Below, piece after piece: positions 31,444-36,235 of a stretch of 64,000 bases of DNA. The notes beneath the pieces are model-generated. The model ran no database searches and was not told the DNA's origin. It worked only from the letters and a program-made list of their open reading frames with translations. A program made the translations under genes and the position numbers. Position 1 is the stretch's first letter, and every line of letters begins with the position of its first letter. Origin of the DNA: Dehalococcoidia bacterium (GTDB taxonomy: Bacteria > Chloroflexota > Dehalococcoidia > Lucifugimonadales > VXLM01); NCBI GenBank assembly GCA_965247555.1, contig CBDFHR010000009.1, positions 1,876,045-1,940,044 on the forward strand, given 5' to 3'.

Positions 31444-31713
31444 CTAACGGTACACGCTGTCGCGTCTTCCAACTCTGAGTACCAGGATACGTAGAGCACT
31501 GTCTTGAATATCGCATATCACACGATGGTCGCCTACTCGATAGCGCCAGTATCCACTGAAGCGACCACCCTCCATCTTGCGCGCCTTGGAGCGCGGATTG
31601 CCCAAAGGCGCTATTCGCTGCTCCATGTAGTCCACAATCCGCTGAGCTGTATTTCTGTCGAGTTTTCGTAGCCGAACGCTCGCCATGCGAGAGTAATCAA
31701 TCGTCCAGGCCAA
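31444..31713 (-). CDS. relE: RelE/ParE-superfamily toxin
   Basis: The 89-aa sequence ..GYWRYRVGDHRVICDIQDSALRILVLRVGRRDSVY is the canonical RelE/StbE C-terminal pattern. Confidence 0.88.
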   Translation of the reverse strand: MAWTIDYSRMASVRLRKLDRNTAQRIVDYMEQRIAPLGNPRSKARKMEGGRFSGYWRYRVGDHRVICDIQDSALRILVLRVGRRDSVYR

Positions 31714-32509
31714 GCTCTTTCCTTACTTCGGCGGACGAATACACTCGTTCTTGACCGTCGCGGATTCGCCTGTCGACGTTCACCGCAATAGAGTAGTCCA
31801 GCACGTCCTCGACTGTCTCCGCCGTATCGCTTTCTACCGACGGATAGCGGGATGTACGGTCGAACGCCTCCGGCTTGTCCATCATCAGGTCGGCCAGCGC
31901 GGGGACGATGAAGGCCAGTATCTCTGTCCCGTCCTCAACCTGGCTCCGATTTACATACCGATTCCACGTCGCCTCGCCGCGAAATAGCTGATTGCGGACG
32001 ACGCACAGACGCTCGAACGCGGCAGCCAGCGGTTCGACCGCGTCCCCGTCCTCGAGCCGAACGCTCACCCGCCGCACGTCGCTGAACAGAAGTTCCTGCC
32101 ATTCGTCGTCGGAATCAGAAATCCCGTTGTAGTAGTCCCAGAACGGCTCGAATATGTAGGGGTTGGCAACGACTTCCAGGATCGTATCGGCGAGATCGCC
32201 CAAGACTTCGTCCCGGATCGTATTCATCGCGTCCGCAGCCGTCGCTTTCTCGAAGAATTTTCTGAAATTTGCCCTTTGAGCCCGCCCTTCGCGGGTCCAC
32301 TCCGCGTAGACGGCCTCGAACGCGATCCAATAGAACATGAACGCCGCGTCCGGGTCATCTTCTTCCTGCCGCGCCCGCTCCAGCCAACTCAAGACACGGA
32401 GCGCCCTCGTCCGCATGTCCGTCGAGAGCGTGTCTTCTATCGAGTCGTGTTTTGCCATGAGCGAATCGAGAGTGAAACGGTCGTCGGGGGAAAGGAGTAT
32501 GTCAACCAT
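31697..32509 (-). CDS. 270-aa protein in the antitoxin position of relE (helical N-domain + antitoxin-like tail)
   Basis: It overlaps relE by 17 nt. The C-terminal ~35 aa (DYSIAVNVDRRIRDGQERVYSSAEVRKELGLDD) resemble toxin-binding tails of RelB-type antitoxins. The N-domain is unassigned and contains VVRNQLFRG. Confidence 0.6.
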   Translation of the reverse strand: MVDILLSPDDRFTLDSLMAKHDSIEDTLSTDMRTRALRVLSWLERARQEEDDPDAAFMFYWIAFEAVYAEWTREGRAQRANFRKFFEKATAADAMNTIRDEVLGDLADTILEVVANPYIFEPFWDYYNGISDSDDEWQELLFSDVRRVSVRLEDGDAVEPLAAAFERLCVVRNQLFRGEATWNRYVNRSQVEDGTEILAFIVPALADLMMDKPEAFDRTSRYPSVESDTAETVEDVLDYSIAVNVDRRIRDGQERVYSSAEVRKELGLDD

Positions 32510-32646: not shown

Positions 32647-33077
32647 TCACTTCATACTCTTGAGTTCTTTCTTTATCATCTTTTCGATGCGCCTATCGTC
32701 ATCGCCTTTGAACATTCCTATCAGTCCGATCGTCGCCATGATGACTCCGGCGACCACCATGATCATTCCGCCGTACCGTATTATCCATAGCACGATCCAA
32801 AGATCGAGCAGGAAACTCATGAACACGCCCATGACGGCTACGACGATGCCAAGGAGAAGCAGCGCCAACCCCCCACCTTCTCCAATACGCCTCCGTAGAC
32901 CGCGGCTGCACCACCGACGACGGCGACGATTATTCCGACGGCTATGAGCAGGGTTGCTGCCAGGTCGAACAATAACGCAACGGACAGGCCAGCCACCGCA
33001 AGTACGATGCCGAAAATCATCATCCCGCCCATCGTTCCGACCTCCTGCGTGAAGTGCTTCAATCCCGTAATGTACAC
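32647..33077 (-). pseudogene. Small polytopic membrane protein split over two frames
   Basis: MGGMMIFGIVLAVAGLSVALLFDLAATLLIAVGIIVAVVGG.. (ORF 32838-33077) continues as ..LLLLGIVVAVMGVFMSFLLDLWIVLW..KKELKSMK (ORF 32647-) after a frame change near 32870. This is either a frameshift or a sequencing error. Confidence 0.45.
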
Positions 33078-33109
33078 GAACGCCCGCCAAATTTCTGGCG
33101 GGCGTTCGT
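33076..33109 (-). terminator. Strong hairpin just 3' of the tRNA (possible terminator)
   Basis: Perfect 14-bp stem ACGAACGCCCGCCA / TGGCGGGCGTTCGT with a 6-nt loop. There is no clear U-tract on the minus strand. Confidence 0.45.
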
Positions 33110-33118
33110 TATGCGTTC

Positions 33119-33193
<75 letters not shown>

Positions 33194-33234
33194 GCGTTAT
33201 TGTAACCGAATCCTGAATAAACGTGTCGTAATGT

Positions 33235-36235
<3,001 letters not shown>

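Follow-up and report, generated by a model that had tools for sequence, protein, structure and literature searches.

A predicted RelE-type toxin gene paired with a putative antitoxin that joins a degenerate HEPN-like domain to a RelB-derived tail

The usual description of a type II antitoxin is a DNA-binding head joined to a disordered toxin-binding tail. In the canonical RelBE pair, the C-terminal segment of RelB wraps around RelE and blocks it. Other arrangements have been uncovered: the PanA antitoxins carry a globular accessory domain and a separate short linear neutralising element (Ernits et al. 2023, PMC10440598), and the MtlR family demonstrates that non-catalytic HEPN domains exist (Anantharaman et al. 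2013, PMC3710099). Here, we describe a gene pair from a Dehalococcoidia bacterium, contained in a stretch of 64,000 nucleotides (the window: GenBank assembly GCA_965247555.1, contig CBDFHR010000009.1, positions 1,876,045 to 1,940,044 of the forward strand), in which a gene for a predicted RelE-type protein of 89 amino acids (aa) overlaps the end of a gene for a 270-aa protein. We consider it likely that the pair is a type II module of the RelBE family with a remodelled antitoxin, an inactivated HEPN domain having replaced the ribbon-helix-helix (RHH) head; the toxin-binding tail would here be portable.

The 89-aa product is a predicted toxin of the RelE/ParE superfamily. Its residues 6-87 match Pfam ParE_toxin (PF05016) over profile positions 2-88 of 89, with an expectation value (E) of 7e-14 and a score of 52.6 bits (cutoff 23), and residues 1-89 align end to end with PDB 2khe (E 8e-21), which we take to be RelE of Thermus thermophilus. 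The TIGR02385 RelE_StbE model gives 27.0 bits, slightly under its cutoff of 27.9, and there is a weak match to PDB 9g12, 'Toxin RelE' (E 0.009). The C-terminal sequence VGRRDSVYR aligns with vghardvyr of 2khe and iarrsasyr of 9g12; its Arg and Tyr are presumably the catalytic residues, as in E. coli RelE, and we expect the protein to be a RelE-type, ribosome-dependent mRNA endonuclease. Both the TTG start codon and the N-terminal AWTI[DE]Y are kept across 10 related loci. In the window, this TTG is preceded by AGTAAGGAAAGAGC, located within the end of the 270-aa upstream gene, and because the sequence before the start lies inside that gene, the arrangement indicates probable translational coupling of the toxin to its partner. 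A preliminary description of this DNA, made from the letters alone, had already pointed to a RelE/StbE-type toxin gene overlapped by 17 nucleotides (nt) by a 270-aa open reading frame (ORF), and the two ORFs do share that segment (Table 1).

The sole part of the 270-aa product with a match to an antitoxin model is its C-terminus, where residues 231-270 align with positions 31-70 of the 70-position NCBIfam model NF048017 (antitoxin_RelB_like; E 5e-6). The score, 26.6 bits, does not reach the cutoff of 50 set for the complete model, since the protein covers just half of it: positions 1-30 are unmatched, and neither Pfam nor NCBIfam finds an RHH domain in the 270-aa protein. A canonical counterpart of the same subfamily is encoded at a related locus, L089, two genes upstream of that locus's own fused gene. 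This 73-aa RelB, which has an RHH head (RHH_1 and DUF6290 matches), scores 87.9 bits on NF048017 (cutoff 50), has no match among PDB sequences, and is followed by a RelE 59% identical to that of the window. Its C-terminal half (residues 37-73) is 51% identical over 37 aa to the window tail, in which the AlphaFold2 model predicts two helices (228-250 and 259-265). As judged from these alignments, residues ~228-270 share ancestry with the toxin-binding C-terminal half of a canonical RelB (~70 aa).

The junction between tail and N-terminal domain coincides with the exact C-terminus of stand-alone proteins related to that domain (...YPVVE-stop versus ...YPSVESDTAETVEDV...). Such a position fits a deletion in which the end of an HEPN gene became attached to mid-relB with loss of the RHH head, and because the junction sits exactly at the stand-alone C-terminus, loss of a stop codon is probably the historical origin of the fusion. 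The possibility that an intact antitoxin gene is hidden in another frame had also been raised; no separate canonical antitoxin ORF was found in other frames or nearby (window ORF list and comparison with the L089 RelB), and the N-terminal half of relB is absent from every frame at the locus.

The N-terminal domain can be placed in the HEPN superfamily, apparently as a family of its own outside every curated Pfam family. It is all-helical in the AlphaFold2 model (mean predicted local distance difference test, pLDDT, 85 and predicted template-modelling score, pTM, 0.77 for the 270-aa model) and contains the strings FMFYWIAFEAVYAEW and VVRNQLFRGEATW. A profile of this domain alone, searched against 1.84 billion representative proteins, gave 2244 matches at E<=1e-3 and 1514 at E<=1e-10. 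Almost all members are stand-alone proteins of 215-245 aa that end where the domain ends, and most N-terminal extensions of the longer ones are heterogeneous and resemble mis-called starts. Plasmid-encoded members are named 'HEPN domain-containing protein' in RefSeq, and in an alignment of 68 members R172 and G178 never vary and N173, Q174 and H177 each reach at least 90%, which amounts to an RNQLxHG (Rx4H) motif. No Pfam, NCBIfam or PADLOC model passes threshold for the family (2244 representative clusters), and Pfam and PADLOC have no match to the 270-aa product, the NCBIfam match at residues 231-270 aside. Below threshold, 20 of the 68 members match Pfam HEPN_RiboL-PSP (PF18735; best E 3.6e-5; 17.7-22.2 bits in three individually listed members, cutoff 28.4), three match HEPN_Apea (PF18739), and some show weak PADLOC matches to Csx1, CARF_HEPN and ApeA. 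Against the PDB, the family profile matched only the ApeA structure 9hxl, weakly and around the motif (E 0.75), and the 270-aa protein itself only weak, spurious matches to annexin repeats among PDB sequences.

The catalytic residues of this family are largely retained in stand-alone members and frequently lost in members that carry the tail. When 152 stand-alone and 40 fused sequences were aligned to the family hidden Markov model and scored for retention of the family residue, R172 was kept in 151/152 stand-alone and 30/40 fused sequences, N173 in 145/152 and 19/40, H177 in 146/152 and 14/40, Y68 in 141/152 and 18/39, and N65 in 141/152 and 0/39. Ten members of the fused clade have Ser or His in place of R172, and 26 have Arg, Gly, Leu or Gln in place of H177. 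The same clade keeps all the other positions conserved in the family, R35, R38, S41, W42, D54, F57, W61, D93, N116, W124 and W137, and likewise R167, Q174, G178, T181, W182, N187, R188, Q190, P203 and P223, at 90-100%. The window copy combines H177R with N65E: the seven codons of its motif read CGC AAT CAG CTA TTT CGC GGC, that is RNQLFRG (Rx4R), and the CGC codon of R177 is one transition away from the His codon CAC. As far as sequence can tell, this pattern is the signature of a former enzyme, now a non-catalytic domain that is still required for its structure or its binding surface, and the window copy has presumably lost its RNase activity. Much of this had been anticipated in the preliminary description, which saw antitoxin character only in the last ~35 residues, a helical domain containing the two strings above, and an Arg in place of the catalytic His of an RNxxxHG-like motif; its suggestion that an antitoxin tail had been joined to a degenerate HEPN-like domain is borne out by the motif, the RefSeq name and the sub-threshold PF18735 matches.

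How widespread is the fusion, and does the toxin gene travel with it? A protein search returned 42 relatives of the 270-aa product, 39 of which consist of the HEPN domain plus the tail; most of these are 262-282 aa long (the range includes 246) and 52-95% identical, with the tail truncated in P0038 (246 aa) and the N-terminal part absent from P0039 (182 aa). The remaining three (218-227 aa) stop where the tail begins. The fused architecture is present in ~40 protein clusters from many assemblies, whose named sources are Chloroflexota/Dehalococcoidia. At each of the 10 intact fused loci that were read (L001-L005, L088-L092), the RelE ORF is present with its TTG start and an identical 17-nt overlap, and at L087, which encodes P0038 with its truncated tail, the RelE gene is absent and a HicAB pair lies on the opposite strand. 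It had been left open whether homologues of the N-terminal domain occur alone or with a toxin: the domain stands by itself at ~160 loci, and neither the tail nor a window-type RelE occurs at any of 77 genome, 4 plasmid and 80 metagenome stand-alone HEPN loci. A metagenome scan found solely stand-alone relatives, at most 42% identical and all lacking a C-terminal extension. The fusion is genuine and conserved, and the tail and RelE strictly co-occur. Moreover, in comparisons of the window with three close relatives (L003-L005; synonymous divergence, dS, of 0.3-0.8, unsaturated), the HEPN domain has a ratio of nonsynonymous to synonymous divergence (dN/dS) of 0.11-0.19, the tail one of 0.10-0.23 and RelE one of 0.30-0.33. 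The HEPN domain is under strong purifying selection, and the module is not decaying in the window lineage.

Public gene calls omit the RelE gene in L001 (4773-5039) and L002 (4794-5063) and begin a shortened version at a later codon in L089 (62 aa) and in L091 and L092 (74 aa), presumably on account of the TTG start and the 17-nt overlap. With the toxin gene missed or shortened in this way, the module would escape annotation-based toxin-antitoxin surveys.

Table 1. Features of the module and its upstream neighbours, in window coordinates
Feature	Position	Strand	Basis or remark
relE-type toxin gene (predicted), 89 aa, TTG start	31444..31713	-	Pfam, TIGR02385, PDB 2khe matches
Putative fused antitoxin gene, 270 aa, ATG start (HEPN-family N-domain + RelB C-terminal tail)	31697..32509	-
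Residues 1-226, predicted HEPN-superfamily domain, degenerate catalytic set (N65E, H177R)	31832..32509	-	Profile search, RefSeq name, motif table
Residues 172-178, RNQLFRG, degenerate Rx4H motif (family consensus RNQLxHG)	31976..31996	-	Sequence reading
Residues 227-270, short linker + putative RelB-derived toxin-binding tail	31700..31831	-	NF048017, L089 RelB alignment
17-nt overlap, antitoxin stop region / toxin TTG start	31697..31713	-	Sequence reading
Shine-Dalgarno-like AAGGA, just upstream of overlap	31720-31724	-	Sequence reading
Perfect 14-bp inverted repeat, 6-nt loop, directly after tRNA-Met	33076-33109		Transcribed strand
tRNA-Met	33119-33193	- (same as module)	Module downstream
23S rRNA	33234-36234	- (same as module)	Module downstream

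We propose that the donor of the HEPN domain was the widespread stand-alone family, which by appearance is catalytically competent, and that the fusion formed by loss of the HEPN stop codon and joining to the middle of relB. The resulting antitoxin would keep only the C-terminal RelB segment (~228-270), with the HEPN domain standing in for the RHH head. After fusion, the catalytic set would have been freed from selection, the remainder of the domain staying under strong purifying selection; given that the one is relaxed while the other is selected, the HEPN domain would work as a non-catalytic module. Considering the homology of the tail to RelB and its strict co-occurrence with RelE, the toxin is presumably neutralised by direct binding of this tail. 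A role of the HEPN domain in dimerisation or sensing is also presumed. Since HEPN domains commonly act as dimers, the simplest role, and most likely the actual one, would be that of a scaffold that dimerises, adds stability and offers two tails to a pair of RelE molecules in a 2:2 complex; the domain may possibly bind RNA or sense a trigger as well. Degradation or displacement of the antitoxin would then release RelE.

Several points weigh against this proposal. A Foldseek search of the model against PDB and BFVD returned nothing at E<=0.001, the top entries being generic helical bundles and ABC transporters, and with no significant structural neighbour the HEPN assignment is limited to a sequence basis, namely the motif, the sub-threshold profile matches and the RefSeq naming. 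The placement of N65 and Y68 at the active site is likewise provisional, drawn from the pattern of losses and not from coordinates. Four fused proteins (P0003, P0014, P0017 and P0021) keep R, N and H, all four without N65; some fused relatives may therefore keep activity, and altered chemistry could in principle be supported by Rx4R. Finally, the antitoxin has no DNA-binding domain, and the proposal does not account for regulation of the operon.

The four proteins with intact R, N and H bear on a quite different picture, in which the pair would be a two-toxin, mutually regulating module: the HEPN RNase would be active, binding between RelE and the tail would hold each nuclease in check, and the 270-aa protein would be both a toxin and the antitoxin of RelE. 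The parent family does look toxin- or effector-like, with its near-invariant Rx4H, its presence on conjugative plasmids and its position next to WYL regulators and RecB-like nucleases, and strong conservation of the HEPN domain would also be expected if it were active. The window copy, however, has Arg for His and Glu for N65, and across the clade N65 is lost in 39/39 members, R172 replaced in 10 and H177 in 26. An active enzyme could hardly tolerate such losses while all non-catalytic conserved positions are kept, so we regard this picture as improbable overall, and a two-nuclease module as unlikely for the window copy. The three-function toxin-antitoxin or defence module entertained in the preliminary description finds no support either, and the missing catalytic residues speak against a second nuclease activity in the window copy. 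A sensor or defence role is also conceivable, if unlikely: the inactivated HEPN domain would recognise a ligand, an RNA or a phage protein and release or activate RelE on infection, much as has been proposed for Panacea-domain antitoxins and CapRel. Strong purifying selection on a non-catalytic domain would suit a sensor, as would the retention of the surface motifs TWNRYVNRSQ and RxxRxLSW in all fused members; accessory antitoxin domains with a proposed sensory role are known (PMC10440598), and the variable slot beside tRNA-Met also hosts HicAB and other toxin-antitoxin genes in relatives. Against this stand the flanks of the module in the window, which are rRNA, tRNA, cyclophilin and PHP-domain genes with no phage or defence-island context, the lack of any match in the PADLOC scan, the failure of a viral contig scan and a phage record search to find relatives, and the fact that no ligand is indicated by any data.

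The least probable explanation by far is an artefact or decay: errors in sequencing or assembly, or a recent stop loss that left a pseudogene, would have run a separate HEPN gene and a short relB together. The junction does match the C-terminus of stand-alone members, and the same slot has decayed or been rearranged in relatives, with a truncated tail and HicAB in place of RelE at L087 and divergent RelE copies at L088 and L089. Yet many independent assemblies, representing ~40 clusters with 52-95% identity, have the same in-frame fusion, both halves give a dN/dS of 0.1-0.2, and the N-terminal half of relB is missing from all frames. Sequencing or assembly error and a lost-stop artefact were rejected on the grounds of conservation in ~40 clusters and purifying selection. 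The lost stop codon between two genes, earlier offered as an alternative to a genuine fusion, thus falls as an artefact and, given the junction, probably survives as an event in the history of the gene.

The proposed RelBE-type module lies downstream of the 23S rRNA and tRNA-Met genes, with no 5S rRNA reported between these two in the window. The hairpin directly after the tRNA is likely a terminator or processing hairpin of the rRNA-tRNA transcript, separating it from the downstream genes; other repeats around the locus look like chance, and a promoter and terminator scan of the region gave background level only. Two small membrane ORFs follow the hairpin, and the module is bordered on its other side by cyclophilin, PHP-domain and GNAT genes. 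The membrane ORFs are arranged in tandem (32647-33090, minus strand) between tRNA-Met and the antitoxin gene and have about two transmembrane segments each, the first lying within 32838-33077 and the second corresponding to the C-terminal ~75 aa of the 32647-33090 ORF. They occupy a stretch of lower G+C content (0.49-0.52) and have a weak holin-family match (E 0.016). Counterparts with 65-78% aa identity occur in L004, where the first ORF has an in-frame stop, and in L005; they are absent from L001 and L002.

In other Dehalococcoidia, the slot is bounded by 23S/tRNA-Met and a CoA-transferase gene, and its content differs: two tandem stand-alone HEPN genes at L007, the fused gene plus RelE at L002, an HEPN gene with HicAB at L087, and a composite array at L088 and L089. 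The slot is variable, with an HEPN gene as its persistent occupant, and the fusion probably arose there. HEPN genes, stand-alone and fused, lie directly downstream of 23S and tRNA-Met on the same strand in the window, L001, L002, L004, L005, L007, L079, L081 and L087-L089. The 23S genes of these Dehalococcoidia are only 84-88% identical to that of the window, and the slot could be either an integration hot spot or a long-conserved position. The array at L089 (1051-4066) consists, in order, of RelB and RelE, an HEPN paralogue with an intact RNQLAHG motif and a C-terminal extension of ~60 aa, a RusA-like gene (167 aa; Pfam RusA at E 1e-3 to 4e-3, below cutoff), a degenerate HEPN-RelB-tail gene and a divergent RelE. 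L088 (1385-4093) lacks the first RelE, and its HEPN paralogue carries the complete RelB as an in-frame N-terminal fusion (375 aa). A RusA-like gene also precedes the fused gene in L090-L092.

The wider HEPN family has partners of its own. In alphaproteobacteria, often on conjugative plasmids, a WYL-domain gene directly precedes the stand-alone HEPN gene in the same orientation with a gap of ~25 nt; this arrangement is found at L017, L083 and L084, and at ~36 of the 77 stand-alone loci (e.g. L083:4002-5666). The pair is flanked by a divergent TM0106-family RecB-like nuclease and an AAA ATPase, and the four genes form a conserved cluster without a PADLOC model that resembles a defence or mobile-element system. 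Another member, P0104 (279 aa), has an N-terminal MazE/AbrB-type DNA-binding domain (PF04014, E 4e-8, above cutoff) ahead of an HEPN domain with an intact RNQLVHG, and is a further independent link between this family and antitoxin parts. Three kinds of HEPN/antitoxin fusion have thus been seen: MazE/AbrB-HEPN (P0104), full RelB-HEPN (L088) and HEPN-RelB tail (the window). Several of these occupy the possible hot spot that follows the 23S rRNA and tRNA-Met genes of Dehalococcoidia. A bolder and rather doubtful extension of our proposal is that the dead HEPN domain is an RNA- or trigger-sensing gate on the release of RelE, and that the HEPN family serves as a hub of recombination, trading parts with toxin-antitoxin modules again and again; if true, a former toxin domain would have been domesticated as the body of an antitoxin.

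A head swapped for a domain of a nuclease/toxin superfamily, followed by loss of catalysis, would make this locus a natural example of modular antitoxin evolution and of the path from nuclease to pseudo-enzyme. The module offers a clean test of what the globular domain of an antitoxin adds beyond neutralisation, be it stability, stoichiometry, regulation or sensing. It also brings to attention a large, uncurated HEPN family that is tightly linked to a WYL regulator in alphaproteobacteria. The HEPN-RelB module itself is clade-restricted, and any special function of its HEPN domain is hypothetical.

How, then, does the module relate to known systems? With RelBE it shares a toxin of predicted RelE type, an overlapping antitoxin gene upstream and ~40 C-terminal antitoxin residues homologous to RelB, and a canonical RelB-RelE pair of the same subfamily lies two genes away in L089. 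The DNA-binding and dimerisation head of RelB is absent and a 225-residue HEPN domain is there instead, so canonical transcriptional autoregulation by the antitoxin is not expected. The stand-alone HEPN family of ~220-aa proteins (e.g. WP_065267398.1, from a Leisingera plasmid) aligns over its full length with residues 1-226 at 30-40% identity, and RxxRxLSW, WIAF, NPYxFxPFW, TWxxxVNRSQ and nearly all conserved positions are kept in the window protein; the differences are H177R, N65E, the 44-residue RelB tail and a RelE partner in place of the WYL regulator.

The PanA antitoxins follow the same logic, a non-neutralising N-domain combined with a C-terminal element from a classical antitoxin (Phd-C in PanA, RelB-C here), but their fold is unrelated (Panacea/DUF4065 versus HEPN), and PanA-like hyperpromiscuity is not in evidence for the tail-bearing clade, for which one toxin partner has been seen so far. 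HEPN-MNT modules (HepT-MntA) likewise contain an HEPN-superfamily domain in a two-gene toxin-antitoxin system; there, however, HEPN is the toxin and is neutralised by the MNT nucleotidyltransferase, whereas here the antitoxin carries the domain, whose catalytic residues are gone, and no MNT gene lies beside the module, whose neighbours are RelE, the small membrane ORFs, tRNA-Met and cyclophilin. MtlR proteins also keep an HEPN fold after loss of Rx4-6H, in a regulatory or binding role; they belong to a different HEPN family and have neither a fused antitoxin element nor a toxin partner. No description of an HEPN-RelB fusion was found in the limited open-access literature, where absence is no proof of novelty. 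Both halves are of known kinds, and their combination is covered by no curated model: with neither a RelB-type RHH head nor the HEPN catalytic His, the window protein still clearly descends, to judge from its alignments, from both the RelB and the HEPN families.

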